Of a DNA stretch of 64,000 nucleotides, positions 1,191 through 57,460 are shown one piece after another; within the stretch, counting starts at the first letter, position 1; every line of letters begins with the position of its first letter. The notes beneath the pieces are model-generated. The model ran no database searches and was not told where the DNA came from. It worked only from the letters and a program-made list of their open reading frames with translations. Source of the stretch: Bdellovibrio sp. ZAP7. GTDB lineage: Bacteria; Bdellovibrionota; UBA1018; CAIMNF01. The position numbers and the translations under genes were made by a program. The DNA lies in the NCBI GenBank assembly GCA_945874535.1, contig CAMCGZ010000002.1, forward strand, positions 73,585 through 137,584. Direction: 5' to 3'.

Positions 1191-2561
1191 ATGAAGCGCC
1201 TGACCCTCATGCAAGGATTGCAGATCGGACTCGGTCTCGGACTGAGCTCGCTTGCTTACGCCCTACCGGCGGATCCGCACAAGATCGCAAGCGAGCTCAG
1301 AATGACCCCTCAAACGGTCCGGGTTCGTCTCTCGAATCTGGGTCGAGTCATGACCGTGCGGGGCACGGATTTGGCCCTGTCGCTCGCTAAAAAGCCCGGT
1401 CTCGGCAATGTTCGCGCCGACGAGTGGGTGATCGATTGCAAACGCAGTCTCATTTACCAGCCCGAAACCAACAAAAGTCGCCAGATTCCACGTTCCGGCA
1501 TTTTGATCGAGAGCCTCTCCGGCGTGCTCTCCATCAATGAGAAGCGCTTCCGTGAGCAAGTCGTGGTGTACCCGAAAGAGCTTCAATCTCCCTACGATTC
1601 TTCGATGCGCGGCAATTCGGAGTGCCTCGTAGTGAATCACATCCAGATCGAAAAATACCTCGAATCGGTGGTGAACGGGGAATTCAACTCGCAGTGGGCG
1701 GAGCCCGCGGTCGAGGCACAGATCATCGCCGCACGCACCTACGCACTCTTTCAGATGAAAGAAATGCGAAAGGACAAGGGGCGGGTGTACGATGTCGAGT
1801 CGACCCAAAAAGACCAGGTTTACCTCGGGATGGACCGCGCCGATTCGAAGGCGACCCAGTTGGTTGCGAAAACCCGCGGGATGATCATGATCCCGAAAGG
1901 GAATCGCAACCTCGAGCCCATTAAGGCCTTTTATCATGCGAGCTGTGGTGGAAGGACCGTGGTCCCCGAGCAGGTGTGGGGCGCTCGCTTTGCAGGCTTC
2001 AAAAAGGGCGTTCCGTGCCAGTACTGCAATCCGTCTCCATCCTTCAATTGGGATTACCGGCTCAGCTTCAATGATATTGAAAAGCGCATCTGGAACGGCA
2101 TTCAAAAAGACTCAAACGGCCGGAAGGTCTGGCCCGAGCAGTACACGAGCGATCCGAATCGTTGGTATTTGATGGATGTGAAACCCAAATACGGCGATCG
2201 CGCTCCGAAACAGAAGAGCTCCAGCTTGGCACTGGTTCGTGACGCCGAAGCGGACGCAGAACCGGCTCGCATCACCGATTTTGTGTTCGAATTTGTGAAC
2301 CGAGACAATTTTGACCAGCGCCTGAAAGTCACCATGGACGCCTACGTGGCGCGCAACTGGTTCGATCCCGCCAAGATGAAGAGCACCTGGTTCAGTATGA
2401 CGAGCCTAGGTCGCTCCATCCTGTTCCGGGGCAAGGGATCCGGTCACGGAGTCGGAATGTGCCAGTGGGGCGCTAAAAAAATGGGTGAGATCGGCTTCAC
2501 CCGGGATCAGATCCTCGCTCACTACTATCCGGACACGAAAATCTCTCGAATTTGGAAGTGA
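1191..2561 (+). CDS. SpoIID/LytB-domain protein (secreted; lytic transglycosylase-like SpoIID family)
   Basis: N-terminal signal peptide. C-terminal …GHGVGMCQWGAKKMGEIGFTRDQILAHYYP… is the SpoIID family signature. Confidence 0.75.
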   Translation: MKRLTLMQGLQIGLGLGLSSLAYALPADPHKIASELRMTPQTVRVRLSNLGRVMTVRGTDLALSLAKKPGLGNVRADEWVIDCKRSLIYQPETNKSRQIPRSGILIESLSGVLSINEKRFREQVVVYPKELQSPYDSSMRGNSECLVVNHIQIEKYLESVVNGEFNSQWAEPAVEAQIIAARTYALFQMKEMRKDKGRVYDVESTQKDQVYLGMDRADSKATQLVAKTRGMIMIPKGNRNLEPIKAFYHASCGGRTVVPEQVWGARFAGFKKGVPCQYCNPSPSFNWDYRLSFNDIEKRIWNGIQKDSNGRKVWPEQYTSDPNRWYLMDVKPKYGDRAPKQKSSSLALVRDAEADAEPARITDFVFEFVNRDNFDQRLKVTMDAYVARNWFDPAKMKSTWFSMTSLGRSILFRGKGSGHGVGMCQWGAKKMGEIGFTRDQILAHYYPDTKISRIWK

Positions 2562-2582
2562 AGGGGATTAAGCTCCCGCCTC

Positions 2583-4292
2583 ATGGGCTTCCTGCTTTCT
2601 CTTTTATTTTGCGCTGCGCAAGCTGCCACTCCAGTGGTACCGGACTATGAGTTCCGCGTGAGCCTCGATCCCGCTTCGAAGGTGCCCCGTTGGATCCTCG
2701 AGTTCACCCCTCCGGCGGGGAATCACTTCAACTTAGGTGCCCCGATGAAGGCCACGGCCCATTCTGGATCCCCAGAGGGGACGATTTCCTTTATCCGGAC
2801 CGAATCGAAAAAGCAGCGGGTTCGCTTTGCGAGCTCGGATCTGAAACTGAAAGAGGGCGAAGAGATCGACTCTTCTTTGTTTTTGTGTGACGAGGCCAAA
2901 ACTTACTGCATCAAAAAGGTGCGGAAGTTTCCCCTTCGGGTGACGGTTTCCCGTGTCGAAAAACAGAAGGCGGCTATCTCGAAGTCGGCAAAAGATCGGG
3001 ACGGGTTTTTTGTGAATGCGCCCGAAGCGGCAATCGAGACTGCGGTGAAGACCAAGAAGCCGCTCCTGATCGATTTTTACGGGATCTGGTGCCCGCCCTG
3101 CAACCTGTACAACGAGAATGTGTTTCCTTCGCTTGAATTCCGGAGGGCTTCGAAGGACTTCGTTCTTTTGAAATTGGACGCAGACGATGAACGCTTCTTC
3201 AAGTGGAAGGCTCACTTCCGTGTCGGGGGGTATCCGACCCTGATCGTGACCCAGACCCCCGCATCGACCTCTTTGGCCTCAGTGTCGGAAGTGGACCGCA
3301 TCGTGGGCTACTTCGGCCCGAAGGCTTTTGTGAAGAAATTGAATGAGGCTCAATCGAGGGGGGGACGAAGCCCCGAGGAACGCCTGAAACAAAACGAGCA
3401 AGACCTGATCGCCGAGTACCGGCGCTTGATTCCGGTCCGGCTCGAGCAAAAAGACGAGGCGGGGGCTCTAGGCCTGATCCGGAAGGGACTTGCGCTGGAA
3501 CCCTCCGATCCCGAGCTCCGGCTTCGGGGGCTTGCGCTTCAGAAACCCCCCGCCGAGAGCCCTGTTCGTGAGGCGCTGCTGAACGAGGTCTTTTCGAAAT
3601 CAGCTTCGATACCGGACTCGACCTTGATGGTGGCACTGGATCAGGCGCTCGATCTGCCGGAAGGAAAATCGTCAGAGACCCGGAAAGCAGCTTTGTTCGC
3701 GGTTCAAGTCCTCGAGAAACGCCTCGATCTGGCAACCCTCATGCTCCCTGAGCTCGAGCTGTCTCTTGCCGACCTCATGGATTTCAAGAAGAGCCTGCTC
3801 GAAGGAGCCGGGGATTCCGAAGGCGTAAAAGCAGCACGGGTCGAAGCCATTCAGGCTTACCGGAAACTGCTCCGCCTCGGTCGGGACCCGGACTCGCGGG
3901 GGATCCATCTCGAACTCGCCGCATTGCTCTGGAAGAACGGCGAGATTGCGGAAGCGAAAGCGATTTATGCCAAGTTCATTAAAAAGTTTCCGGAAGAATT
4001 CACCTTTCACCATGCCGCGGCCGGGATGCACTTCGAACTCAAAGAGTTGAAAGAGGCGCGGGGACAGGCCGAGCTTGCGGTTCGCTTCGCATATGGCGAT
4101 AACCTCATCCGTTCGATGGAGCGTCTGACCAAGATCATGGCAGCCGAGGGTGAGCGCGATTTTGCCATCAGTCGGGCGCGTTTATTTTTAGAGAAGTTGA
4201 AAGTGGAGGAGGCTCCCGGAGTCCGTACCGGCCGTTATGTGGCCTCCTTCAAGAAAACCCTCGATGCGATCGAGAAAGGACCGATCAAATGA
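2583..4292 (+). CDS. Secreted thioredoxin-fold protein (WCPPC motif) fused to C-terminal TPR-like repeats
   Basis: Signal peptide. …LIDFYGIWCPPCNLY… CxxC thioredoxin motif; C-terminal half has repetitive helical (TPR-like) sequence. Confidence 0.6.
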   Translation: MGFLLSLLFCAAQAATPVVPDYEFRVSLDPASKVPRWILEFTPPAGNHFNLGAPMKATAHSGSPEGTISFIRTESKKQRVRFASSDLKLKEGEEIDSSLFLCDEAKTYCIKKVRKFPLRVTVSRVEKQKAAISKSAKDRDGFFVNAPEAAIETAVKTKKPLLIDFYGIWCPPCNLYNENVFPSLEFRRASKDFVLLKLDADDERFFKWKAHFRVGGYPTLIVTQTPASTSLASVSEVDRIVGYFGPKAFVKKLNEAQSRGGRSPEERLKQNEQDLIAEYRRLIPVRLEQKDEAGALGLIRKGLALEPSDPELRLRGLALQKPPAESPVREALLNEVFSKSASIPDSTLMVALDQALDLPEGKSSETRKAALFAVQVLEKRLDLATLMLPELELSLADLMDFKKSLLEGAGDSEGVKAARVEAIQAYRKLLRLGRDPDSRGIHLELAALLWKNGEIAEAKAIYAKFIKKFPEEFTFHHAAAGMHFELKELKEARGQAELAVRFAYGDNLIRSMERLTKIMAAEGERDFAISRARLFLEKLKVEEAPGVRTGRYVASFKKTLDAIEKGPIK

Positions 4293-4951
4293 TCCATGAA
4301 CTTCTGACCTGGGTGAAGTCCCTCCACGATCCGGCCACATTCCAGCTCTGGCTTTCGACCGGAGGAATTGTTCTGGTGACCGCGATCGTATTTGCAGAGA
4401 CCGGGCTTCTTGCCGGGTTTTTCTTGCCCGGGGATTCACTCCTGATCACGGTCGGGGTGCTCAACAACCCTGCTAACCCGAACCACATCCCCGGCTCTTC
4501 CATTTTCAATTATGCGATCGCACTCACTCTGGCCGCCATCGTCGGTGACCAGCTCGGCTACTGGCTCGGCCGTAAAACTGGTGAGATCGTATTCTCGCGC
4601 CCGGACTCCTTCTTTTTCAAAAAGAAACACCTGAACCGGGCCAAGGGTTTCTATGATCGCTACGGCATTGCCGCGGTCATCGCATGCCGCTTCATCCCGA
4701 TTTTCAGGACCTTTGTGCCCTTCGTTGCGGGAGTCGCGAAAATGGATTACCCTCGGTTTTTACGTTGGGACATCCTCGGCGGATTTGTGTGGATCAACTC
4801 CCTGCTGACGGTAGGTTACTTTCTCGGTCAGACCGAGCTCGCCAACCGTCTCGATAAAGTGATTGTGATTGTGATTTTCGTATCCGTGCTCCCGATCATC
4901 ATCGGAGCCGCCAAACGTGCCATTCAAGGAGGCCAGCATGAGCATTCATGA
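4289..4951 (+). CDS. DedA/TVP38-family membrane protein
   Basis: …FAETGLLAGFFLPGDSLLITVGVL… and …RFIPIFRTFVPFVAGV… match DedA-family motifs. Start overlaps upstream stop by 4 nt. Confidence 0.8.
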   Translation: MIHELLTWVKSLHDPATFQLWLSTGGIVLVTAIVFAETGLLAGFFLPGDSLLITVGVLNNPANPNHIPGSSIFNYAIALTLAAIVGDQLGYWLGRKTGEIVFSRPDSFFFKKKHLNRAKGFYDRYGIAAVIACRFIPIFRTFVPFVAGVAKMDYPRFLRWDILGGFVWINSLLTVGYFLGQTELANRLDKVIVIVIFVSVLPIIIGAAKRAIQGGQHEHS

Positions 4952-5420
4952 GTTCAAGGTGAAGAAAGCCGACGGTTCGGAGATTTCCCTGTCCGACTTC
5001 AAGGGTAAGGTTCTGTTAGTGGTGAATACCGCGAGTGCGTGTGGGTTCACTCCCCAGTACGAGGGGCTTCAAAAGCTGAAGTCGACTTTCGGTGACCGGG
5101 GTTTCGAGGTGCTCGGGTTTCCGTGCAATCAGTTCGGAGCCCAGGAGCCCGGTTCGGATTCCGAGATCCAGGGGTTTTGTTCGCGGAGTTTCGGGGTGAC
5201 TTTTCCGGTGTTCTCCAAAATCGAAGTGAACGGAGAAGGGGCTCACCCGCTTTATCAGTGGCTTAAAAAAGAGGCTCCCGGCATTCTCGGTACGGAAGCG
5301 ATCAAGTGGAACTTCACGAAGTTCCTGATCTCGAAGGACGGCCTCGTGCTGAAACGCTATGCCCCCCAGGACAAACCCGAGTCGATTGCATCCGAGATCG
5401 AAAAACTGATCTCCCAGTAA
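4917..5420 (+). CDS. gpx: Glutathione peroxidase (thiol peroxidase)
   Basis: …VLLVVNTASACGFTPQYEGL…FPCNQFGAQEPG…KWNFTKFLI… canonical GPx motifs with catalytic Cys. Confidence 0.85.
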   Translation: MPFKEASMSIHEFKVKKADGSEISLSDFKGKVLLVVNTASACGFTPQYEGLQKLKSTFGDRGFEVLGFPCNQFGAQEPGSDSEIQGFCSRSFGVTFPVFSKIEVNGEGAHPLYQWLKKEAPGILGTEAIKWNFTKFLISKDGLVLKRYAPQDKPESIASEIEKLISQ

Positions 5421-5426
5421 TGCGGC

Positions 5427-5903
5427 TTAGAAAGCCCCCTCAGACTTGAACTCCTTCTCCGACAGGCGCTTCAGCTCAGGGAGGAGGGTTTTGCACAGGT
5501 CGGCCCGCTTTTTCAAGCAGGCCAGCCGGTCGGCGGGTGTAGAATCCTTTTGCTGTTTCCGGATCCGGTCGATTTCGTCTTTTTTGATTCCCGGTTGCTG
5601 ATCGAAGACCACGAGCCAGAGTCCACAGGTGCAAGTGGACTGGCAGGACAGCGCTTGTTTTTTTTGCGACGCAAGCGTTGATCGCTTCACCAGGTCCTTC
5701 AGGCTGTTCTCCCAGGCTGGGCGAAGAGGAAGCATGAGCTGACGCGCTTCTTCTGGTTTTAAATCGCACCAGGATCCGCCTTCGATTACGTGGTTCAAGC
5801 CCTGAATTGCGACTTCCAGGTCAGGTGCAGTCCATTTTTTCCCCTCGGCAAAAACTGCCGGGGTGGAGATCACGAGAGAAATCAAAATAGCGATCTGTTG
5901 CAT
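5427..5903 (-). CDS. Hypothetical secreted Cys-rich protein
   Basis: Signal peptide MQQIAILISLVISTPAVFA; several Cys (CQSTCTCG). No family recognised. Confidence 0.4.
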   Translation of the reverse strand: MQQIAILISLVISTPAVFAEGKKWTAPDLEVAIQGLNHVIEGGSWCDLKPEEARQLMLPLRPAWENSLKDLVKRSTLASQKKQALSCQSTCTCGLWLVVFDQQPGIKKDEIDRIRKQQKDSTPADRLACLKKRADLCKTLLPELKRLSEKEFKSEGAF

Positions 5904-5951
5904 GGATTCAGTTTAAGAGAGAACATCAAAGACAGGAAAGGAATTCCTCCC

Positions 5952-7445
5952 ATGTCTTTTCAAGGAAGATACTTCGCTCCCTGGTTTCTACTCGTTCTGA
6001 TCCTTTCTTCATCTTGCAGTACTGTGGAGCATGGGCCCGGCCGCAAACCAGCGAGTGCTTTGCATTTGCAAAAATTCAGAGTGAGCGAACACCTGGTCCG
6101 GACGCAGTGGCAACAATTCCGGAACTGGTCTGGAATCGCCACGAATTCGGGGGATGCGGAGTTGCAGGCCACACTGTTGAAAACACTGGTTCAGACCTAT
6201 GCCAAGGCCGATGAGTTGGTGGTGGAGCTCGATCGGCTGTTCAACTCTGGTGTGACGGTGGAGCAGTTGGTCCGGACACGCCCCGGCGAGCGGAACCTCT
6301 ATGCCGAGTTCCTGTCTTTGCGCGCACTGAAAGAAAGCATCGAAGAAGGGATCAAGAAAAGAGCGGAGATCCAGTTCAATGAAGCCCTCGATGCCGACAC
6401 TCCTAGGATCCCGGCGCTCGATCAGTTGGAGTCACAAGCCAGGAAATTGAGAGATGAGCACCCGGGACAAGAAGGTCTGGTTGACCTCGCACTTCAGGAG
6501 GTCCGTGAGCATGCCGGGGTACTCAATGCCGGATACAGCGAAGGTCGGATGGCGGTCCCAGCCCATTCCGCGGTTGATCTGAGTCTGGTCCGCAAGGTCC
6601 GGAAACAGATTCAGGAGCGCCCGGGTGAATCGCTTCGCGTCTTCGCACCTCAGGATGGTGAGGCCGGCATTCATGTCGATCGGTTCATTAAAAAAATCCA
6701 TTCCAGGACTGCAGAGGAGCTCTCGGCTGTTTTCAATCAGGGTGGCCGTCTTCCTGCCACTGATGGGATCAAGATCGAACCTTCCACCACCACTGCCGGG
6801 AACATCACCGGTGCCGGTTTCCCGAAGGGGGTTTGGGCCCTGACTTACGATGATGGCCCGGCCCGGACTACGGGAGCGGTTCTCGAGAATCTGAAGAAGC
6901 ACGACATCAAGGCGACTTTCTTCATGCTTTCCGGGCAAATCGACACCCCTAAAGAGTACCCCGAATTCGCGGTCAGGGAAGCCAAAGAGGGGCACGACGT
7001 CGCCTCGCACTCCTATTCTCATCCCCAGGTTCCGAAGCTCGCAGCTTCTCAGCGGGAGCGTGAAATCGGGGGCGCGGTGAAGGTGTTCGAGCAGGTGCTC
7101 GGAAAAAGGCCAGACTTTTACCGTCTTCCTTACGGCGCTGGGGTCTCGGTTCCTTCCATCCGGGCGGATATCGCCCATGCCTGCATGGTGCATGCTTTCT
7201 GGAACGTGGACACCCTCGATTGGCACGACAAGGATCCGGAGTTGATTTACCAGCGTAGCGTGAAGCAGGTCGAATCTCTCGGGCGCGGGATCATCCTCTT
7301 TCATGATATCCATTCGCAGTCGGTCACAGCCTCAGAAATGCTGATGCGGTATATGAAAGAAAAGGGAGTCCGGATGGTCACCCTTTCCGAGATCGTGAAA
7401 GAGATCAACGGGGGTCAATCCTGGAGCTGCACTCCGGTCAAATGA
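5952..7445 (+). CDS. Polysaccharide deacetylase (NodB/CE4 domain) with N-terminal signal/lipoprotein-like sequence
   Basis: Start taken at internal Met (MSFQGRYFAPWFLLVLILSSSCS) rather than the long upstream extension. …TYDDGP…HSYSHPQ… NodB-homology motifs. Confidence 0.7.
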   Translation: MSFQGRYFAPWFLLVLILSSSCSTVEHGPGRKPASALHLQKFRVSEHLVRTQWQQFRNWSGIATNSGDAELQATLLKTLVQTYAKADELVVELDRLFNSGVTVEQLVRTRPGERNLYAEFLSLRALKESIEEGIKKRAEIQFNEALDADTPRIPALDQLESQARKLRDEHPGQEGLVDLALQEVREHAGVLNAGYSEGRMAVPAHSAVDLSLVRKVRKQIQERPGESLRVFAPQDGEAGIHVDRFIKKIHSRTAEELSAVFNQGGRLPATDGIKIEPSTTTAGNITGAGFPKGVWALTYDDGPARTTGAVLENLKKHDIKATFFMLSGQIDTPKEYPEFAVREAKEGHDVASHSYSHPQVPKLAASQREREIGGAVKVFEQVLGKRPDFYRLPYGAGVSVPSIRADIAHACMVHAFWNVDTLDWHDKDPELIYQRSVKQVESLGRGIILFHDIHSQSVTASEMLMRYMKEKGVRMVTLSEIVKEINGGQSWSCTPVK

Positions 7446-18725: not shown

Positions 18726-19880
18726 TCAGAACATGTACTTCTTGTTCGCTATGTTGACGAGGATGGCCACTCCGCTCATGGCGGTGAGCAAGGCCGAGCC
18801 TCCGTAACTCATGAAGGGAAGCGGAACCCCTACGATCGGAAGCATGCCCATGACCATTCCCATGTTCACAAACACGTGCCAGAAGAAAATCGAGACGATT
18901 CCGAAGGCGAGTAATGAGGCGAATTTATCGTTCGATTGATAGGCGACCGAAAGCCCGCTCATGATGAACAGGCCGTACAGGAGCAGGAGCACGGAACAGC
19001 CGATGAACCCCCATTCCTCACTGAAGACCGAGAAGATGAAGTCGGTGTGGTGCTCGGGCAGGAAGTTCAGGTGGGCCTGGGTTCCTTTTTTGAAACCCTT
19101 GCCCCAAAGCTGGCCCGAGCCTACGGCGATCATCGACTGGATGGAGTTGTACCCCGCACCTTTCGGATCGCTCATCGGATCGATGAAGGTGACGATCCGC
19201 TGGCGCTGGTAGGGCTTGAGGCCGTAATTGTAAACGACTGGAAGCGAGATCGCAGCCACCACAGAGAGCAAAAGCAAGATCTTGGGTTGGATCCTGAGGA
19301 AAAGCAGCATCGATCCGTAGACGAGAAGGATGATCATGGCGGTTCCAAGATCCGGCTGGACGATGATGAACGACACCGGAATGACCACGAACAGACTCGG
19401 GACAATCAAATCGGTCAGCTTCAGTCCCTGGGTGGTGTTCTTGTTCTCGAAATACTTGGCGAGGAAGATCACCATCGAGAGTTTCATGAGCTCGGACGGC
19501 TGGAGGCTGAATCCTCCGAGGTTGATCCAGCGTTTGGCACCGAGGGAGGATTTACCGAACGCGAGCACCGCGATGAGGAGTCCCATGTTGCCGATGTAAA
19601 TCAGGTAGGCAAGGCGGGAAAGGAAGCTGTAGTGGGGGAATTGGAGAATCAGGGTCACCACCGTGCCGAGGCCGATCGATACGGCCTGGTTCTTCCAGAG
19701 GCCCAGTGACTTGTCTTCCACCCCGGTGGCGCTCAGAAGGTTCATCATCCCGACCGAGAGAATGACGATCTCGAGAATCAGAGGGATCCACTTCAGCCAC
19801 TTGAACTCTTCTTCATAAGATGAAGTCCGGTTCGGGTCGAAGGTCTGGTCGAGATTGGTCTCCATCGAGGTATAGGTCAT
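18726..19880 (-). CDS. rodA: SEDS-family peptidoglycan glycosyltransferase RodA
   Basis: FtsW/RodA family polytopic membrane protein; directly downstream of PBP2 in an mreC-mreD-mrdA-rodA arrangement. Confidence 0.8.
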
Positions 19881-48477: not shown

Positions 48478-49898
48478 AGCAGAGATTCCTGGTCAAGACA
48501 CTCGGATGCAAGGCCAACTCGTCGGATGGCCAGCAAATTGAAGCGGGCTTACTCAAGCACGGTTGGAGTCCTGCGACCGGCGATACCGATGCCGATGTCA
48601 TCGTGGTCAACTCTTGCACGGTGACCGATGAGGCCGATCGTCAGTCCAGAAAACTCGTCCGGGATCTGGCCCGTAAGAATCCCTCAGTCCGCGTGATCTA
48701 CACCGGATGTGGTGCGGAGGTCGACCCCGAGGCGGCATTGAAAATTCCGGGTGTCAGCGCAGTAATCGGAAATCAGGATAAGGATCGTGCCGCCGACCGG
48801 ATCGTGGAACATCTGGAGGCGGCCCCCTCAGAACCGGAAATTCTTGGGACCGTTCGGGGCTATCAGGAGTTCCGTTCCCGTCATCCCATGGATCGTGAAT
48901 GGGCCATGCCATCGACCGGGGCCGAAGAGCTCTTGAGTCTTGATCCATCCGCTTCCACCTTCAGGACTCGTGCGTTCATCAAGGTTCAAGAAGGGTGCGA
49001 TGCATTCTGCACGTATTGTGTGATTCCCTACGGAAGGGGGCCGGCACGGAGTCTCAGAATCGAAGAGATCGTCGATCAGGTGAAACGCCTGAGAGACGAG
49101 GGGATCCGTGAAGTGATCCTGACCGGAACGAACATCGGTGATTACGGAATCGATTGGTCCGGTCAGCCCCGGGTCGACGATCTGATCGAGTCCATCCTGC
49201 TCCATTCCGGAATCGAACGTCTGAGAGTGGGGTCTCTCGATCCGACAGAAATTTCAGAACGGATGATTTCCATGATGGAGGACATCGAGTCTTTTTGCCC
49301 TCACTTTCACGTATCCCTCCAGCATACCGAGTCACGGATTCTGAAGCTCATGAAGCGGAAGTACACAGGCGTTGATGTGGAGGCTAGTCTGGATCGTCTC
49401 GGTTCGATGAAAAGGCGTCCTTTCATCGGAATGGATCTCATCACCGGATTTCCGGGTGAATCTGAAGAAGAGTTTCAAGCCATGGAAGAGCGCCTGAGCC
49501 GATGGCATTGGTCGCGGCTTCATGTGTTCCCATACAGTGAACGTTCCGGTACTCCCGCCACCCGTCTTCCGGATTCGGTGGAGTTCTCCGCCAGGAAGGA
49601 GCGGGCCCGTCGCCTGCTTGCGATCAGTCTGGAGCGAATGACCCGCCGTTTTTCGGATATCCGTGCCGGGGGCCTGGATCGAATCGATGGCGTACTGGTG
49701 GAAGGGCGTGTGAAGGGGCCGGATGGAACGAGGGCCTGGCTCTCGGGCTATTCCCCGGACTATCAAAGGGTGCTGTTCCCGGAGGTTGCCGCATCTCCGG
49801 GCCTCACGCGGAACCGGATCGTACCCGTTAAGATCGGTCGTTGGTTTGTCGATCGGGCATCGGGAGAGGTTTCTTGGATCGGAGAGTGTCATGCCTGA
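48474..49898 (+). CDS. Radical-SAM methylthiotransferase, MiaB/MtaB family
   Basis: N-terminal MTTase Cys (LGCKAN…NSCTVT…), radical SAM CDAFCTYC, C-terminal TRAM-like region. Confidence 0.8.
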   Translation: MKQRFLVKTLGCKANSSDGQQIEAGLLKHGWSPATGDTDADVIVVNSCTVTDEADRQSRKLVRDLARKNPSVRVIYTGCGAEVDPEAALKIPGVSAVIGNQDKDRAADRIVEHLEAAPSEPEILGTVRGYQEFRSRHPMDREWAMPSTGAEELLSLDPSASTFRTRAFIKVQEGCDAFCTYCVIPYGRGPARSLRIEEIVDQVKRLRDEGIREVILTGTNIGDYGIDWSGQPRVDDLIESILLHSGIERLRVGSLDPTEISERMISMMEDIESFCPHFHVSLQHTESRILKLMKRKYTGVDVEASLDRLGSMKRRPFIGMDLITGFPGESEEEFQAMEERLSRWHWSRLHVFPYSERSGTPATRLPDSVEFSARKERARRLLAISLERMTRRFSDIRAGGLDRIDGVLVEGRVKGPDGTRAWLSGYSPDYQRVLFPEVAASPGLTRNRIVPVKIGRWFVDRASGEVSWIGECHA

Positions 49899-50625
49899 TC
49901 AGAAGCCACAGACCCTGCATGGGCTCCAGGACCAGATCCGTTATCCGTTCGGAGATCCGAGGCTATTGATTCTCGCATTGACCCACGTCTCATACGGGCA
50001 GGAGAATCACCAGGAGCGTCTTCCGGTTCAGCGGAACAACGAACGTCTCGAGTTTCTGGGTGACTCAGTTCTGGGCTTGGTGATTTCGGATCTGTTGTTG
50101 GAAGCCTTTCCTGAAGCGAGTGAAGGGCAGTTGTCCAAGATGCGGGCGGCGGTGGTGAATGAGAAGACTCTGAGTGAGATCTCGAAAAGCCTGAGGCTGA
50201 GTGGTTTGATGCTTCTCGGGAAGGGGGAGATGCGCACCGGCGGAAACGAGAAGGCATCGATCCTTTCGAGTGCCTTCGAGGCATTGATTGCCGCCATCTA
50301 CATCGATGGGGGATTCAATGCGGTTTACCCTGTGGTCCGGTATCTCTTCGCACCACTTTTCAGGTCGGAAAACTGCTCGATTTCCTTTCAAGATCACAAA
50401 ACCAGACTTCAAGAGTTGATCCAGAGCCGGTACCGGCTCACTCCGACTTACCACCTGATCGCTTCGAGCGGTCCGGACCATGCCAAGGTCTTCACGGTGG
50501 AGGTCCGGGTCAAGGACCGGGTGCTCGCATCGAGCGAAGGTTCTTCAAAAAAGAATGCCGAGCAAAACGCGGCCTGTGAGGCCCTCCGGATTCTTCCGGA
50601 AATGGACGGAGGATTCGAGAAATGA
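49891..50625 (+). CDS. rnc: Ribonuclease III
   Basis: Start at MPDQKPQTL…; signature …ERLEFLGDSVL…; C-terminal dsRBD. Confidence 0.85.
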   Translation: MPDQKPQTLHGLQDQIRYPFGDPRLLILALTHVSYGQENHQERLPVQRNNERLEFLGDSVLGLVISDLLLEAFPEASEGQLSKMRAAVVNEKTLSEISKSLRLSGLMLLGKGEMRTGGNEKASILSSAFEALIAAIYIDGGFNAVYPVVRYLFAPLFRSENCSISFQDHKTRLQELIQSRYRLTPTYHLIASSGPDHAKVFTVEVRVKDRVLASSEGSSKKNAEQNAACEALRILPEMDGGFEK

Positions 50626-52987: not shown

Positions 52988-53026
52988 GCCGGGGTGGCGA
53001 AATTGGTAGACGCACAGGACTTAAAA
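52988..53026 (+). tRNA. Disrupted host tRNA-Leu(UAA), 5' part (nt 1-39: acceptor 5' strand through anticodon loop CTTAAAA)
   Basis: GCCGGGGTGGCGAAATTGGTAGACGCACAGGACTTAAAA then diverges (CTTTTGGCG…) instead of TCCTG. Completes perfectly with 57411-57460. Confidence 0.8.
53000..53026. repeat. Left copy of 27-bp direct repeat (AAATTGGTAGACGCACAGGACTTAAAA) = att core, tRNA-Leu nt 13-39
   Basis: Perfect identity with 57384-57410; flanking bases differ (G vs A upstream, C vs T downstream). Confidence 0.85.
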
Positions 53027-53077
53027 CTTTTGGCGAGTTTTGGCTAAGTAATTGATATTTTTAAGGATAAATCTCTA

Positions 53078-53296
53078 ATGGTAGAGCAGAAAACCCTCAA
53101 AAAGGTAGAGCAATCTACCGATAAGATCGTAGATATGGCGAGCTTCCGCGAAGCAAAGATGCTTTACGAAATCTCCCAGCGTATAAACCCTCAACACACA
53201 CGAGAGGAAATCTACGAAGCGGTAGAGTTTTTTAAAGCAAATGAAAAGAGAACGAAAGATTCCAGAAAATGCGGAGGTGTTCTTCACACTCATTAA
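53078..53296 (+). CDS. Small ORF (72 aa) upstream of and overlapping the integrase start; doubtful
   Basis: Only ORF evidence; contains the two GGTAGAGCA repeats. Confidence 0.2.
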   Translation: MVEQKTLKKVEQSTDKIVDMASFREAKMLYEISQRINPQHTREEIYEAVEFFKANEKRTKDSRKCGGVLHTH

Positions 53297-54419
53297 GCCG
53301 ACTCCAAACAAGGAGGGGCCGAATGCTCGTCGCTCATTTGCTTTCATCATGGACATTCAATACGCTGATGGCCGCCGCGATCAACCTCGCTACCAGTTTC
53401 CCGAAGGCGACGACCGACTAAAGGTCATCAATAAATCCTACAAGATCGCCGACGATAAAAACGAAGCCTTCGAGAAGTGCCTCAAGCTCGCTTTAGACCT
53501 TCAAAAGAAACTTTACGTTGAGCACGGTCTTGAGAAAAAGACGGTCTTCAATCAGGAAAACTACGGAGTGCTGGATCAGTTTTTCGACTGGAAATACAGC
53601 GCGAAGAAAACGAAAGATAAAACTGCCGCGTACAACGATTTCCGCCGCGCAGTCGATGCCGTTGGTTCAATTCCGCTGCAAACTGCAACTAAGGCGGAAA
53701 TCCAGAAAGCGATCTCCGCCGCCGAAAATAAACAGCAACGGAGAATTGCGAGCCGCTTGAACATGATTTTTAAGTATCTCAAGCGAGATATTGTTTTGGA
53801 TAAGGACAAGAAAAAAAGAGTTTCTGTCCGCTACCTGAACGAAAAAGAATTCGCCTCGGTGATGAAGCTCATTAAGGACGAAAATCTGCGCTTAGTTTTC
53901 GAGATGGCCTTTCATTCCGGCTGTCGCATGGGCGAACTTTTCGCTTTAAATGAAGCTGATTTGCGTGCAGGGTTGCTGACCGTCGATAAGCAAATGCTCC
54001 GAACCGAAGAGGCTGTCCGTCGTCGGAAGCAAGAATACAAAGCCAAGGGCAAAACTTGGACGAATTGGATTCCGAAACCTACTGACCTGACCACCCCGAC
54101 AAAAAACGAACAAAGTCGGCGGGTCGTCGTTTTCGAAGAGTTCGCTCCCGCCTTTAGAAAATGGTGCGAGCTGGATTACGAAACAAAATTTAAGCTGCGG
54201 CATTCGCGGTTAGCGGAGATTTTAAAGACCGCTTGCGAGCAGAAGTTTCCGCAAAATGCTCAGAAACAATGCGTAGCTCATTGGACCGCGCCCCTCAACT
54301 TGGAAACCGCATCGAGGTTTGCCAGGAATTTTACACAGGCTACGAACTCCACAACGAGAACATCACCGTCCTCAAGTCGCTTATGCTGGCAAAAAAATAA
54401 TCGTTACGGGCGCCCGTAA
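53241..54419 (+). CDS. int: Tyrosine-type site-specific integrase (catalytic Tyr position possibly substituted: …ETASRFARNF…)
   Basis: Core motifs …AFHSGCRMGELFAL… (Arg I) and …KLRHSRLAEIL… (H-x-x-R). C-terminal region aligns by eye to the T-x-R-Y-A-H nucleophile motif but reads R-F-A-R. Start could alternatively be Met at 53349. Confidence 0.75.
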   Translation: MKRERKIPENAEVFFTLIKPTPNKEGPNARRSFAFIMDIQYADGRRDQPRYQFPEGDDRLKVINKSYKIADDKNEAFEKCLKLALDLQKKLYVEHGLEKKTVFNQENYGVLDQFFDWKYSAKKTKDKTAAYNDFRRAVDAVGSIPLQTATKAEIQKAISAAENKQQRRIASRLNMIFKYLKRDIVLDKDKKKRVSVRYLNEKEFASVMKLIKDENLRLVFEMAFHSGCRMGELFALNEADLRAGLLTVDKQMLRTEEAVRRRKQEYKAKGKTWTNWIPKPTDLTTPTKNEQSRRVVVFEEFAPAFRKWCELDYETKFKLRHSRLAEILKTACEQKFPQNAQKQCVAHWTAPLNLETASRFARNFTQATNSTTRTSPSSSRLCWQKNNRYGRP

Positions 54420-54490
54420 CGCAACCTTAATTCTTGAATTGTCAAGACTCTTCAGGTAAGGTTTTTTCAAGTTTGAAAAAATGAGTGTAT

Positions 54491-54814
54491 GCCCCCATGG
54501 TGAAATCGGTAGACACAAAGGACTTCAATTGGAGCCTCGTCTGGGAAACCTTATGAGTGGACACAGGGATAACGGTGAACGCTTACTGCTTCGCAGTAGT
54601 TGCCAACACCGTGGGAACATCGAGCAAGAAATTGGGAGATGAGCGCCGTAGAGACTAGATACCTGTGCACCTAAAATTCGCAAGAATCACGGTGAAGATA
54701 TAGTCCAGACCACAAACAAGACCGATTTATTTCGGAGTTGGCGGCGAAAGTCGAAGTGGTAAGAAAATCCTTGCCCGTAAGGGAGTGCCAGTTCGATTCT
54801 GGCTGGGGGCACCA
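54491..54814 (+). tRNA. tRNA-Leu(UAA) interrupted by a group I intron in the anticodon loop (exons 54491-54525 and 54764-54814; mature 86 nt incl. CCA)
   Basis: Exon 1 GCCCCCATGGTGAAATCGGTAGACACAAAGGACTT. Exon 2 AAAATCCTTG-CCCGTAAGGG-AGT-GCCAGTTCGATTCTGGC-TGGGGGC-A-CCA. Acceptor GCCCCCA/TGGGGGC, anticodon stem AAGGA/TCCTT, loop CTT|AAAA, long variable arm (type II), discriminator A. Confidence 0.8.
54526..54763 (+). ncRNA. Group I intron (tRNA-Leu(UAA) anticodon-loop type, ~238 nt, no ORF)
   Basis: Inserted after U34, ends in G. R-like element CGTAGAGACTAGATACC (54648-54664) and a perfect S consensus AAGATATAGTCC (54695-54706) form P7. GAAA tetraloop (GCGAAAG) near the 3' end. P1 region CAATTGGAGCC resembles cyanobacterial tRNA-Leu introns (UUGAGCC). 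Confidence 0.75.
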
Positions 54815-54815
54815 A

Positions 54816-55259
54816 CTATTTTTTCTGAATCTTTTTTTGATTCTTACTCGATTTTTTTGAGATCGAGTTTGGATATCGATCAAGTGAACAAGCTTTCCGC
54901 ACCTCAGATAAAAGACTGTACTGCTTAACATCAGTGTACGGATTGAGAAACGTCTCCACATTTTTTAGCTCAGCTTCCCCGTACAGCGAAAAAGTCTCGG
55001 CGGGAATGTCGATGGTTGCTTCAACGTACTGACCTTTTTCATTAATCGTATTCGCTGGCACAAAAGACCGAAGCTTGAATCGGGTTTCGGAATTAGTTTT
55101 TGGATTAACGATAAAATACCAGCTCGGTTCATTCATCGCTTTAACAAGAAGTCCCTCAAGAGTGCAGGTGCCTTTTGGAAATCTCGTAAGGGCAAAGCTG
55201 GCCGAAGGAAATGCCAAGACCAAAATTAAAGATAAAAGAATTTTATTTTTAGTAAGCAT
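54816..55259 (-). CDS. Secreted hypothetical protein (147 aa), overlapping and co-directional with the C13 peptidase gene
   Basis: Signal peptide MLTKNKILLSLILVLAFPSASFA; Lys-rich C-terminus. 11-nt overlap with the upstream gene. Confidence 0.5.
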   Translation of the reverse strand: MLTKNKILLSLILVLAFPSASFALTRFPKGTCTLEGLLVKAMNEPSWYFIVNPKTNSETRFKLRSFVPANTINEKGQYVEATIDIPAETFSLYGEAELKNVETFLNPYTDVKQYSLLSEVRKACSLDRYPNSISKKSSKNQKKIQKK

Positions 55260-56754
55260 ATTCCAAGCATCTCCTAATCGACGAATACTCCTTGATCATA
55301 TTGTCGTCGCCATATTTCAATAAATCCAATTCAAGATTCAAAATTTCGTATTTACGACGGTCTTTTTCAACTTCAGCTAACTTAATTTTTATTTGCTGTG
55401 CATCCAACTGGCCTTGCTGGCGTTTCGCGGCTTGCTCTTGGGGGGACAGGCGATCCCAGTTCTTTGCGGACTCAGCAATACTCGCCTTGAGGTCCTGAAT
55501 CCTCAAATCAAGGTCATCAAGAATAGCAGCGGAATCTTTGCCTTTAAGATTTTGGATAGTCTTTTCCAAACTCCCTTTAAGATATTGATGGCGACTTCCT
55601 GGAATACCATCAGTTGAAATTCCCATCTTCCCTTTCATTCGCTCAAAATCTTCGAGCAAACTTGCGATCTGTTTGAAAGCATCGTCGGGATGCGTGGAGC
55701 AACCGCTGACAGATTGAATGGGACTGATTTTTTTAGATCTTCCTTCGAGGATTTTGTTTTTATTCTTCGTAAGAAACCACTCAAGACTTGTCGTCGGAAT
55801 ATTCTGCGGATTATCTAAGTTCGTCGCATACAAGTGGGCATCCCAGTAGGTCGCTTTGCTGTCTTTGTCGGTATCCAATTTCTTTTTCAAAGCATAAGGA
55901 AAGTTCTGTCCATATAGGTCCAGATCAATGGATTCAGATAAACTCGTTTTGTTTCCTTGTTGATTGGCGAACACACAAACATTCGAGGAGGTCAGCTCGG
56001 TTAAACCACCGCCATAGCAAATATTCGTCACAACTCGAATCTGATTCGTTAACGGGAACTCACGAAGTAAATCACCCAATTGATTTACTGTCATGCTTTC
56101 GCCCCAAAGTGTCACAGTAGAACCACCTTCGGGATCTTGTTCACCGTGATCGGTTATGTAGAGGGTTAAATTGTCGCCCGGTTTTAATTTTCCGCGAAGC
56201 TCTCGGAACTTGTCTTTTATATTTTGCGAAGTCGCCCCGCCGTCGAGTTCGCGTTTTTCGCCGCTAAAAAGATAATCGAGGGTAATTGTGCTCGGAGCTG
56301 CAGGTTTGTCTGACTTATCCGATTTAACACCCGTTCCATCCCCTGATGGGATTGTTCCCATTCGAGTGGGTTCCATTTTGGTCTCACTCGGCATCACTTG
56401 GGCCGAGGGAGGAGAACCATATGAACCGCCGCCGCCATACCGGCCCGGCTGTCCCATCTCTGGAAATATCGGCTGAGTACTTGGCGAGTTAGTGTCTTCG
56501 ACCTTGCCGCTACCGTAAAGCACCATGATGTGATCCGATGCAATTCTGTTGCTACGAAAAGCATCATACATCGTGCGAACATTTTCGAAGTACCGTTGAT
56601 GATTGCTGGCTCGGTTTGCCCCACCGTTGATAATGACCGCATAATTTTTGCCGTCTCCGTCGCCTGCATTTGCGACCGAGATTGCGAGAATTAAAATTAA
56701 AGAAAAATAAAGTTTAACCATTCCAGTTATCTTATCGACACAGATTAAGTTCAA
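55249..56754 (-). CDS. Secreted legumain-like cysteine peptidase (peptidase family C13, clan CD caspase-like fold) with C-terminal coiled-coil region
   Basis: Signal peptide (…ILILAISVANA). N-terminal …KNYAVIINGGANRASNHQRYF…IMVLYGSG…; catalytic His in …LTLYITDHGEQ… and Cys in …RVVTNICYGGG… ~43 residues apart, as in legumain (…YFTDHG… / …IEACESGS…). Confidence 0.7.
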   Translation of the reverse strand: MNLICVDKITGMVKLYFSLILILAISVANAGDGDGKNYAVIINGGANRASNHQRYFENVRTMYDAFRSNRIASDHIMVLYGSGKVEDTNSPSTQPIFPEMGQPGRYGGGGSYGSPPSAQVMPSETKMEPTRMGTIPSGDGTGVKSDKSDKPAAPSTITLDYLFSGEKRELDGGATSQNIKDKFRELRGKLKPGDNLTLYITDHGEQDPEGGSTVTLWGESMTVNQLGDLLREFPLTNQIRVVTNICYGGGLTELTSSNVCVFANQQGNKTSLSESIDLDLYGQNFPYALKKKLDTDKDSKATYWDAHLYATNLDNPQNIPTTSLEWFLTKNKNKILEGRSKKISPIQSVSGCSTHPDDAFKQIASLLEDFERMKGKMGISTDGIPGSRHQYLKGSLEKTIQNLKGKDSAAILDDLDLRIQDLKASIAESAKNWDRLSPQEQAAKRQQGQLDAQQIKIKLAEVEKDRRKYEILNLELDLLKYGDDNMIKEYSSIRRCLEYAY

Positions 56755-56839
56755 TTTAAAGAAATCGTTAAAGATTTCGACTTTTTGATCGCTCTAAATC
56801 GATTTCTTCCATTCTGGTTGATCTTCGTCCCGACTTTCG

Positions 56840-57154
56840 TCAGCACTTTGACGCCCAGGCCTTTAATCCAATACCGTTCAGACGATCCAAAGCACCTATT
56901 TTATCCATCCCATAAGCTTCGAGCACCTTTATAAAATCAAGCGGATGAATTTTTCCGGCGGACTCGTATTCTCGTAAAAGTTCGGTATCAATTCCTATTT
57001 TTTCTGCGGCTTCGTCGATTGTAACGGGATTACCCCGAATCCAATCCGCATTCATTTCGTAGTGTTCAGCTAATTCCTTCGCCCAGGCGCGAAGCACAAC
57101 CTCTTCCGCATCCGTGGGCTTACGGTCGCCGTAAAGCCATCTCTTTTTTCCCAT
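56840..57154 (-). CDS. Xis/AlpA-like HTH DNA-binding protein (putative excisionase/regulator)
   Basis: …PVTIDEAAEKIGIDTELLREYESAGKIHP… fits the HTH_17/excisionase pattern (xTxxEAAExLGxxxxTLxRxxxxGxxP). Gene sits at the attR-proximal end. Confidence 0.5.
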   Translation of the reverse strand: MGKKRWLYGDRKPTDAEEVVLRAWAKELAEHYEMNADWIRGNPVTIDEAAEKIGIDTELLREYESAGKIHPLDFIKVLEAYGMDKIGALDRLNGIGLKAWASKC

Positions 57155-57383
57155 TCAATTTAAGTCTAACGGACTTTTCTAAATCGGGCAAAGACCTCTA
57201 ACCACTAAGGTTTTTCGTCCAGTTCCTTGCAGCATCGGTGCAGCACGAGCCGCACCTTCAAGCTTCATATTCTAACCCCATAACAGCCGCCGGACTCCGG
57301 CGGTCCCGCCAAAACCGTGAACCCAAAACCAAGCCTCCGCGACCGGCGTTTTTCGCCGCAGCGCCCCCTTTTTGCCCAAATCA

Positions 57384-57410
57384 AAATTGGTAGACGCACA
57401 GGACTTAAAA
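57384..57410. repeat. Right copy of 27-bp direct repeat (att core)
   Basis: Identical to 53000-53026. Confidence 0.85.
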
Positions 57411-57460
57411 TCCTGGGTTTGGCAACAGACGTACCGGTTCGATTCCGGTCCTCGGCACCA
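57384..57460 (+). tRNA. Disrupted host tRNA-Leu(UAA), 3' part (nt 13-86 + CCA); lacks the 5' acceptor strand and D-stem
   Basis: AAATTGGTAGACGCACAGGACTTAAAATCCTG-GGTTTGGCAACAGACGT-ACCGGTTCGATTCCGGT-CCTCGGC-A-CCA; upstream sequence (…TTTGCCCAAATC) cannot pair with CCTCGGC. Confidence 0.8.

Follow-up and report, generated by a model that had tools for sequence, protein, structure and literature searches.

When a mobile element integrates into a tRNA gene through an attachment core too short to rebuild that gene, what supplies the tRNA? The question is raised by a 4,384-bp genomic island in the 64-kb stretch of DNA analysed here (64,000 nucleotides, called the window throughout), from a Bdellovibrionota-like bacterium. 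The island divides a chromosomal tRNA-Leu(UAA) gene, and next to its integrase gene it carries a second, complete tRNA-Leu(UAA) gene whose anticodon loop is interrupted by a 238-nt insert. A preliminary description had taken this insert for a group I intron and its presence on an integrative element for a novelty. Our answer is that the locus is a tRNA-dependent island in Bdellovibrionota-like hosts, in which the complementing tRNA gene is itself interrupted by a group I intron; both components were known, and no description of their pairing was found. The explanation as a whole, an integration island with a split host tRNA and an intron-bearing replacement, we hold to be true with good confidence.

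The island tRNA gene escapes standard annotation. ARAGORN without introns calls tRNA-Cys (971-1046) as the sole tRNA of the window, and Rfam at its gathering thresholds, run on the whole window, matches the same tRNA-Cys and nothing at 54491-54814. When introns are allowed, ARAGORN reports a tRNA-Leu(taa) whose ends fall exactly at 54491 and 54814 and whose first anticodon base is followed by a 238-nt intron (gactt-intron-aaaat). Removal of the insert in silico leaves an 86-nt tRNA-Leu(UAA) cloverleaf with an encoded CCA, so the gene is split between U34 and A35, as had been proposed. The motifs quoted in the preliminary description (GTAGAGACTAGA, AAGATATAGTCC, the GCGAAAG loop, UUGGAGCC and the terminal G) are all found in the insert. 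It was also said to be free of any open reading frame (ORF) or homing endonuclease, and the ORF list agrees, with only frames of 52-96 aa that cross the exon boundaries.

The insert matches the group I intron model RF00028 at 54516-54720 (25.9 bits, E = 1.9e-4 in a 701-nt search of 54300-55000), with GUAGAGACUAGA and GAAGAUAUAGUCC aligned to the R and S elements at high posterior probability. The window contains this R...S motif pair a single time, and 100 shuffles do not contain it at all. Bacterial introns are missing from the Rfam seed, and matches of at least 18-20 bits inside split tRNAs have been considered reliable (Williams 2020, 10.1101/2020.01.27.920355). An unconstrained minimum free energy (MFE) fold of the intron alone gives nested helices P2-P6, P8 and P9 (z = -2.2), and a complete P1-P9 secondary structure was drawn by hand (Table 1).

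Relatives for comparison came from three scans. Scanning IMG/VR for the R...S pattern gave 73 loci, eight of which are tRNA-Leu(taa) genes with an intron at the same site (ARAGORN intron mode). Narrowing the pattern for a scan of metagenomes yielded 30 loci, mostly tRNA-Leu(taa) bearing this intron. A genome scan, whose pattern strictly required R, S, CCAGNCNACAAA and the 3' exon, gave one locus, a Pseudobdellovibrionaceae metagenome-assembled genome (MAG), L078; this count reflects the strictness of the pattern and not rarity, since locus L083 with GCAAA would escape it. The introns of L115 and L118 were found through integrase homology and not through an RNA pattern.

Covariation supports the hand-drawn structure. 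In an alignment of 12 homologues it pairs 98.6% of cells, with compensatory changes at 26 of 54 pairs, while controls with the 3' partners slid by 1-3 columns give 30-40% pairing and four or five pairs changed on both sides. With 16 homologues, L115 and L118 among them, pairing is 95.8% and 40 pairs out of 70 are compensatory, against 33-39% and 12-18 pairs in the slid controls. For the 12 closest homologues the paired fraction of cells is 98-100% in P3 to P9b and 92.6% in P2, and P8a is compensatory at all four of its pairs. Among the 16, the helices pair in 82-100% of cells, and compensatory changes occur at eight of nine pairs in P2, six of six in P3, two of six in P4 and one in P7, and also in P5, P6, P6a, P9 and P9b; the change in P7 of L118 is an A-U to U-A exchange. 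The acceptor, D, anticodon and T stems of the tRNA pair in every cell of the 16-homologue alignment, and the anticodon stem, whose strands lie in separate exons, covaries at three of its five pairs. The P1 pairs (U54525·G54532, U54524-A54533 and C54523-G54534) are invariant in all 16, as is the terminal G54763; because the P1 pairs never vary, covariation is silent for or against P1.

As far as sequence analysis reaches, the insert is thus established as a group I intron, and a catalytic one by prediction. The P1 start, the guanosine-binding site in P7, the GNRA loops and the terminal G named in the preliminary description are borne out by this structure, and P3 to P9, on whose drawability that description had staked its case, can be drawn with covariation in support. 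The RF00028 search that it called for did give a significant match on the sub-region, at a score discussed below. The architecture (P2, a short P5, no P5abc, a GAAA hairpin in P9) would be compatible with subgroup IC3; in Table S5 of a 2026 survey (PMC13011429) a similar intron is labelled IB3 and cyanobacterial Leu introns are labelled IC3.

Table 1. Features of the island and of its intron-bearing tRNA gene, in window coordinates
Feature	Position	Strand	Evidence or remark
Host tRNA-Leu(UAA) 5' part (attL): acceptor 5' strand, D arm, 5' anticodon stem, anticodon loop	52988-53026	+	
Left 27-bp att core AAATTGGTAGACGCACAGGACTTAAAA	53000-53026	+	perfect direct repeat, spacing 4384 bp
Island	53027-57410		4,384 bp, bounded by the perfect 27-bp repeat
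Small conserved ORF, 72 aa	53078-53296	+	overlaps integrase gene start
Tyrosine integrase pseudogene	53241-54419	+	Pfam, DNA alignment, frame translations
Perfect palindromic hairpin CGTTACGGGCGCCCGTAACG	54402-54421		just past integrase stop; terminator-like for minus-strand transcripts
Exon 1 of island tRNA-Leu(UAA), GCCCCCATGG...GGACTT	54491-54525	+	last base U34; sequence, splicing in silico, ARAGORN intron mode
Group I intron, 238 nt	54526-54763	+	final base G; RF00028, covariation, MFE fold, R/S motifs
P1	54523-25/54532-34		U54525·G54532 at 5' splice site
P2	54536-44/54549-57		GAAA loop
P3	54562-67/54662-67		
P4	54572-77/54607-12		
P5	54581-82/54602-03		plus extension
P6	54613-14/54646-47		
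P6a	54618-21/54638-41		
P7	54651,54653-57/54701-06		bulged A54652; G54653-C54705, putative guanosine site
P8	54668-71/54691-94		
P8a	54676-79/54684-87		GCAA loop
P9	54710-13/54756-59		
P9a	54722-25/54732-35		
P9b	54742-45/54750-53		GAAA loop
Terminal G of intron	54763		
Exon 2 of island tRNA-Leu(UAA), AAAATCCTTG...TGGGGGCACCA	54764-54814	+	A35 to encoded CCA; splicing in silico, ARAGORN
Cargo ORF, 147 aa	54816-55259	-	hydrophobic N-terminus; no family by Pfam, PADLOC
Cargo ORF, up to 501 aa	55249-56754	-	425-490 aa in public gene calls
Helix-turn-helix (HTH) protein, 104 aa (MerR/excisionase-like HTH)	56840-57154	-	near right end; sub-threshold Pfam MerR, MerR_1, HTH_3
Right 27-bp att core (attR)	57384-57410	+	element DNA before core gives no tRNA 5' end
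Host tRNA-Leu(UAA) 3' part: 3' anticodon stem, variable arm, T arm, acceptor 3' strand, CCA	57411-57460	+	

The intron-bearing gene does lie, as had been claimed, inside an inserted integrative element and is a second tRNA-Leu(UAA) unlike that of the host. The host gene spoken of in the preliminary description exists, but it is not intact: it consists of two halves with the island between them (Table 1). The left core is preceded by the tRNA 5' end GCCGGGGTGGCG, with element DNA starting directly after ...CTTAAAA, and the right core is followed by the tRNA 3' half ending CCTCGGCACCA. Neither junction makes a tRNA by ARAGORN, intron mode included; attL lacks the 3' half and attR the first 12 nt. 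Deletion of 53027-57410 in silico restores an 89-nt tRNA-Leu(taa), and this reconstructed host tRNA is identical to the intact, intron-less gene found at the empty site in L109-L114. The order there is der, intact tRNA-Leu(taa) and a DUF900 gene, on contigs of other samples whose Der proteins are 99% and 94% identical to that of the window, which in ENA is contig ERZ27280281 k141_1252531. Der homologues that are 77-78% identical are labelled Bdellovibrionales or ‘Proteobacteria’, and those at 53-54% Bdellovibrionia or Oligoflexia. GC content is 42-47% inside the island vs ~56% of the contig outside. Both ends of an element were seen in the window only, as no attR was found in the fetched DNA of the related L125, L126, L115 and L116.

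These boundaries also bear on another idea, that the 4.4-kb insert as a whole is a giant intron. It does sit in an anticodon loop, and its first bases, AAAACUUUUGGCGAGUUUUGG, can be drawn by eye as a weak P1-like pairing. It follows A38, however, and not U34; Rfam gives no ribozyme hit at either end; a 27-bp direct repeat is typical of site-specific recombination, with an integrase module at the start of the insert; and relatives bear unrelated cargo behind the same junction. We rejected the idea on these repeats, the integrase and the cargo that varies between members, and we give it practically no credence.

The same junctions would be suspect if the island, in truth part of a phage or of another organism in the sample, had been misjoined at the 27-bp tRNA-like repeat. 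The assemblies are of short-read metagenomes, and Logan contigs break exactly at the core. L128 (ERR3719164) is, over its whole length, window 52997-57413, an independent copy of the island, and L002 from the same run ends at the core (at its position 4230), so that the breaks fall at the core plus 3 nt on both sides of the island. The ends of L002 and L128 overlap by 30 nt, which fits k = 31. Since the 27-bp repeat is shorter than k-1 for this inferred k, the breaks would point to a true branch and not to a collapsed repeat, which suggests that occupied and empty alleles coexist in ERR3719164. The join of host half to element recurs at the same nucleotide in independent metagenomes (L078; L094/L125/L126; L115-L117), and the host tRNA halves at both window junctions are not found in the tRNA that the element itself carries. 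We regard a misassembly as very improbable.

The integrase gene of the window is a pseudogene. Its PF00589 match is weak (14.2 bits), while the intact L078 orthologue scores 27.5 bits vs a cutoff of 27.1. DNA alignment with orthologues reveals a net 49-nt deletion near 54281-54290, in gaps of 40 and 9 nt, that removes the HDLRHS box and throws the C-terminal LGNRIEVCQEFYTGY segment out of frame. The conserved tyrosine of that segment would be the catalytic residue; intact orthologues carry conserved HDLRHS and tyrosine-containing motifs. The island tRNA-Leu(taa) begins 72 nt downstream of the integrase stop.

The following course of events is proposed. A 4,384-bp island with an integrase of a small tyrosine-integrase family would have recombined with the chromosomal tRNA-Leu(UAA) of a Bdellovibrionota-like bacterium through a shared 27-bp core ending exactly at the 3' end of the anticodon loop (CTTAAAA). 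This 7-nt loop is likely the overlap region of strand exchange, because identity between element and tRNA always ends after it. Since attP is without the first 12 nt of the tRNA and without its 3' half, integration would leave two non-functional halves, for which the island's own complete gene next to the integrase gene would compensate, as in phage tRNA-dependent lysogeny. The primary transcript of that gene would have to self-splice: exogenous guanosine would attack after U54525, paired to G54532 in P1, the terminal G54763 would then take the P7 site, and the exons would be ligated to an 86-nt tRNA with encoded CCA. The simplest view of the intron is that it is a heritable passenger of the tRNA gene, and its family would seem to reside in chromosomal tRNA-Leu genes and phage tRNA arrays as well. 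Since the integrase has decayed, the island is probably fixed.

Transcription and splicing of the island gene, complementation of the split one and dependence are predictions. With the native tRNA split, the integrase dead and the only visible replacement in need of splicing, the cell probably depends on the splicing of the island intron for reading UUA codons. Decay of the integrase while every helix of the tRNA and intron stays intact is what would be expected of such dependence.

Several points weigh against this explanation. The 25.9 bits of the RF00028 match fall short of the gathering score of 50 by which Rfam decides membership. P7 and the outer part of P8 belonged to the search patterns, and their invariance is partly by construction, L115 and L118 excepted. 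A promoter scan found no sigma-70-like promoter upstream of the island tRNA. The tRNA scan covered 64 kb of the genome, and a second tRNA-Leu(UAA) may lie elsewhere. Lastly, all sequences are metagenome assemblies.

Two of these points, the missing promoter and the 64-kb reach of a scan in which tRNA-Cys is the one other tRNA, would also suit a relic: the island tRNA-Leu could be decaying, unspliced or unexpressed, with UUA read by another tRNA-Leu(UAA) elsewhere, and the decay of the integrase in the same island agrees with this. What speaks against a relic is the condition of the gene. All tRNA and intron helices of the window copy pair, save for a 2x2 internal loop in P2; its differences from L078 and L094 in P3, P8a and P5 are compensatory; and its exon 1 is identical to that of L094, with exon 2 one base different. 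Most bacteria, moreover, have a single tRNA-Leu(UAA) gene. A relic is in our judgement improbable, and we keep to the functional replacement.

The conserved module of integrase and tRNA recurs in a family of elements. The integrase family comprises 14 clusters at E <= 1e-10 in a 5.8-billion-protein collection; identities are given relative to the L078 integrase. L078 itself has the host half ...GGACTTAAAA, the small ORF, the integrase and its own tRNA-Leu with a 272-nt intron. The same junction and module are found in L094/L125/L126 (89%), with a 225-nt intron, and in L115-L117 (51%), with a 224-nt intron and the tRNA on the opposite strand; in L118/L119 (59%) the host half was not seen and the intron, of 216 nt, is more divergent. 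Two phage-like groups, L120-L122 (42%) and L123 (40%), have an attP-like core ending ...GGACTTAAAA upstream of the integrase and an intron-less tRNA directly after it; among their phage traits are a terminase in L120 and VapE in L123. Still further away, IMG/VR relatives ~30% identical have either an intron-less tRNA-Leu(taa) right after the integrase (L131, L133, L138) or a conventional attP bearing the tRNA 3' part (L132, L134). By this distribution tRNA-Leu(UAA) targeting is old in the integrase family. A split host tRNA together with an own copy is common to all examined members with integrases at least 40% identical, and the intron is limited to the sub-clade at least 51% identical.

The small ORF of the module has no Pfam match. 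L078 and L094 have homologues in the corresponding place, 86% identical to each other in aa sequence, and ORFs of 71-81 aa are called there in L115-L122. The introns of L115 (9227-9539) and L078 (4881-5238) have an extra hairpin in the P1 loop (TTGAAATCTTTAGTGATTTCTAA and TTGAAATCATTAGTGATTTTTAA, respectively), which is conserved between them though their integrases are only 51% identical; the window intron is without it.

Why the intron should be retained is a further question. Its position splits the probable integrase crossover site CTT^AAAA, which would make the element's own tRNA unusable as attB. It might therefore be kept as a shield, blocking recombination of the island attP with its own tRNA in cis, protecting the sole working copy from disruption by a related element, and leaving chromosomal intron-bearing alleles such as that of L083 immune to the island family. 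Such a role would add to the explanation given above and not replace it. The core boundary lies at CTTAAAA in the window, L078, L094, L115, L120 and L123. The spliced anticodon arms of intron-bearing members are the same as the target (L115) or differ in the distal pair only (window, L078, L094), while the intron-less own tRNAs of L120 and L123 differ from the target at two of five stem pairs. In L083 and L102 an intron-bearing tRNA-Leu that looks chromosomal shares its 5' exon sequence in full with the window's host tRNA. The unrelated pelagiphage-type L011 combines an intron-bearing tRNA-Leu(UAA) with two AGTAGACTTAAAA copies and may repeat the pattern independently, and for archaeal tRNA introns the idea has a precedent (Randau and Soll 2008, as cited in PMC3488258).

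Against a shield, L120-L123 manage with intron-less own tRNAs, that of L123 differing from the attP core at only 2 of 25 positions. L131, L133 and L138 have an intron-less tRNA-Leu, phage-borne or the host's, right after the integrase, and the tRNA-Leu(TAA) of phages HTVC119P and HTVC200P is detected by tRNAscan and hence intron-less (10.1101/410191). The intron, restricted to one integrase sub-clade, may have been acquired just once; phage tRNA arrays commonly hold introns of the same family without an integrase in the neighbourhood; and the position of strand exchange is inferred solely from where identity ends. We consider a shielding role unlikely, if less so than any of the rival readings above.

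The allele just mentioned is a tRNA-Leu(UAA) with a 205-nt intron of the same family (L083 4005-4298, L102 85-378). Its surroundings in L083 look chromosomal, with genes for an Rsm22-like methyltransferase, SSB and a glycosyltransferase, and it is without the contiguous att core that the island family uses. At another locus (L096 1308-2975) a different tyrosine integrase, 25% identical to that of the island, adjoins the 3' end of an intron-bearing tRNA-Leu(UAA), with an MTHFR gene following; the arrangement resembles a conventional island that has entered a chromosomal, intron-containing tRNA at its 3' end.

The remaining contents of the island are cargo (Table 1). The larger cargo ORF has a weak Pfam match to Peptidase_C13 (legumain/caspase-fold; 17.8 bits, under the cutoff); no PADLOC hit and no confident Pfam function was obtained for the window cargo. 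The 104-aa HTH protein may be a regulator or a recombination directionality factor. No phage structural genes were recognised in the 4.4-kb island from the ORF list and Pfam. Behind the conserved integrase-tRNA module the cargo differs between the window, L094 and L078. L094 carries a ThsB-like TIR protein, a caspase (Peptidase_C14) and an HNH type II restriction enzyme with a C5 methyltransferase, its defence cargo lying at 3844-5295 and 2179-3847 and also at L125 11637-14663. L078 has TolC-like and HlyD-like genes at 5209-7435, assigned by eye without a profile search.

The hairpin past the integrase stop looks like a terminator of minus-strand transcripts that would otherwise read antisense through the tRNA gene. 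Its 16-nt palindrome core TTACGGGCGCCCGTAA is kept in L078 (4800-4815), L094 (5616-5631), L125 (11211-11226) and also L126. The palindrome is unique in the window; L125 has a second copy at 19541-19556, 8.3 kb further into the element.

The scans returned further introns. Longer tRNA-Leu introns of the same family with an inserted ORF measure 720 nt in L019/L091/L107, 687 nt in L042/L086/L088/L097/L099/L100/L104 and 665 nt in L081/L085/L106; the ORF in the L019 intron is HNH-like by eye. Several of these genes, for instance those of L086, L088, L091, L097, L099, L100 and L104, sit among other tRNA genes in phage-like clusters, so mobile, endonuclease-bearing relatives of the window intron would circulate in phages. 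Viral contigs from IMG/VR (L003, L024, L035, L036, L052, L053, L056, L068) have tRNAs with the anticodon UCA (‘SeC’ by ARAGORN), split by group I introns with the same core, which could be opal suppressors. Other intron-split tRNAs among the loci are tRNA-Cys, Ile(tat), Lys and Gln. In the window itself, and at the same place in L001 and L002, ARAGORN in intron mode calls a ‘tRNA-Ala(ggc)’ with a 131-nt intron (49807-50034). This call lies inside a long ORF, 49723-50625, that holds the RNase III gene rnc, mostly upstream of the called rnc start; it has no Rfam support and is probably a false positive of intron mode.

The island is of use in several ways. It offers a natural test case of a cell that probably depends on a self-splicing ribozyme brought by a mobile element. 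Standard annotation is blind at such a locus, returning no tRNA-Leu and nothing from Rfam at threshold, so that genome-completeness checks and tRNA-based island finders would mis-score it. The strategy of disrupting a tRNA gene and bringing one's own appears to reach past actinobacteriophages and pelagiphages to small cargo islands in Bdellovibrionota-like bacteria, one relative of which carries defence genes.

For the intron the nearest known class is ‘Leu.3Ug’, the tRNA-Leu(UAA) 34/35 introns, classical in cyanobacteria and plastids and present also in Pseudomonadota and Bacteroidota (10.1101/2020.01.27.920355; PMC13011429). The statement in the preliminary description that tRNA-Leu introns belong to cyanobacteria and plastids, with proteobacterial ones in other tRNAs, does not stand, Leu 34/35 introns being known in Pseudomonadota and Bacteroidota from the same two sources. 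Across bacteria 5,292 tRNA group I introns have been mapped, including a tRNA-Leu class at the same site, in Proteobacteria only, with C instead of U at position -1 (Williams, 10.1101/2020.01.27.920355). The 2026 survey counts tRNA group I introns in 18 phyla, with Leu 34/35 a common site; it places those of Pseudomonadota and Cyanobacteriota mainly at 33/34, 34/35 and 36/37, and for Bacteroidota it records a tRNA-Leu(UAA) intron that has a homing-endonuclease gene (PMC13011429). The window intron resembles Leu.3Ug introns in gene and site (CUU/intron/AAAA), in U at -1 and the terminal G, in a short P1 using GAGCC, no P5abc and a GAAA-capped hairpin in P9, and in a size range of 190-270 nt, usually with no ORF. 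It differs from them in that its gene is on an integrative island and not at a native chromosomal locus. By global alignment it is 85-89% identical to uncultured relatives, L083 among them, and 74% to a Desulfobacterota tRNA-Arg intron, but only 63-64% to cyanobacterial examples, and its S element reads AAGAUAUAGUCC vs cyanobacterial AAGAGAGAGUCC. On this low identity a specific cyanobacterial origin was rejected.

For the island the model is tRNA-dependent lysogeny, described for mycobacteriophage Fionnbharth, Cluster L and others (Guerrero-Bustamante and Hatfull 2024, PMC10865867). Shared features are an attB overlapping a tRNA gene and a core too limited to rebuild the tRNA; the tyrosine integrase next to attP is intact in orthologues and a pseudogene in the window. 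In the window the 27-bp core lies inside tRNA-Leu(UAA), neither junction is rebuilt and the empty site has an intact gene. The island differs in that the carrier is 4.4 kb long and without phage structural genes, although its more distant relatives are phages, and in that the core, of 27 bp, lies on the 5' side of the anticodon loop, in a Bdellovibrionota-like host. By analogy, then, the island works like the phage tRNA-dependent system, yet it is not a prophage.

The pelagiphages HTVC119P and HTVC200P (HTVC019P-type, T7-like) also split a tRNA-Leu(TAA) and have next to the integrase a tRNA-Leu(TAA) of their own that is ‘likely used instead’ (Zhao et al., 10.1101/410191). They are unrelated in phage type and integrase lineage, and their tRNA genes are reported as intron-less. 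Uncultured pelagiphage-like contigs from IMG/VR (L006, L008, L011, L020 and L074; T7-like, pelagiphage-type) do bear an intron-containing tRNA-Leu(UAA); its exons are SAR11-like and its group I intron is 193-196 nt long. Genes for an integrase, RNA polymerase, primase-helicase and DNA polymerase are present in L011. ORFs were listed for L006 and L011, and in both the tRNA is just past the DNA polymerase gene, on the strand opposite the phage genes. The spacer between integrase and RNA polymerase in L011, where pelagiphage attP sites lie, holds the two AGTAGACTTAAAA copies, one running on as ...AAAATC; as a candidate attP this 11-13-nt match (E = 0.18) is only suggestive. Queried with the whole gene, a distant blastn search of ‘phages’ returned no more than short matches to the exons or the core. 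In the literature, within an incomplete coverage that makes this weak evidence, no group I intron was found described in combination with a tRNA-splitting, tRNA-carrying element; the claimed novelty would hold for the combination and, both parts being known, is narrower than first stated.

Finally, tRNA introns have been proposed to protect tRNA genes from integrating elements (Randau and Soll 2008, EMBO Rep 9:623, as cited in PMC3488258). Here as there an anticodon-loop intron interrupts the target DNA of an integrase, and the coincidence of intron position and recombination core makes an old question testable, namely whether such introns guard tRNA genes from integrases. The archaeal introns of that proposal are spliced by proteins and lie in host genes, unlike the bacterial group I ribozyme of the island, which lies in the mobile element's own gene. 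Should the intron indeed act as a shield, it would be the bacterial, element-side counterpart of the archaeal proposal.

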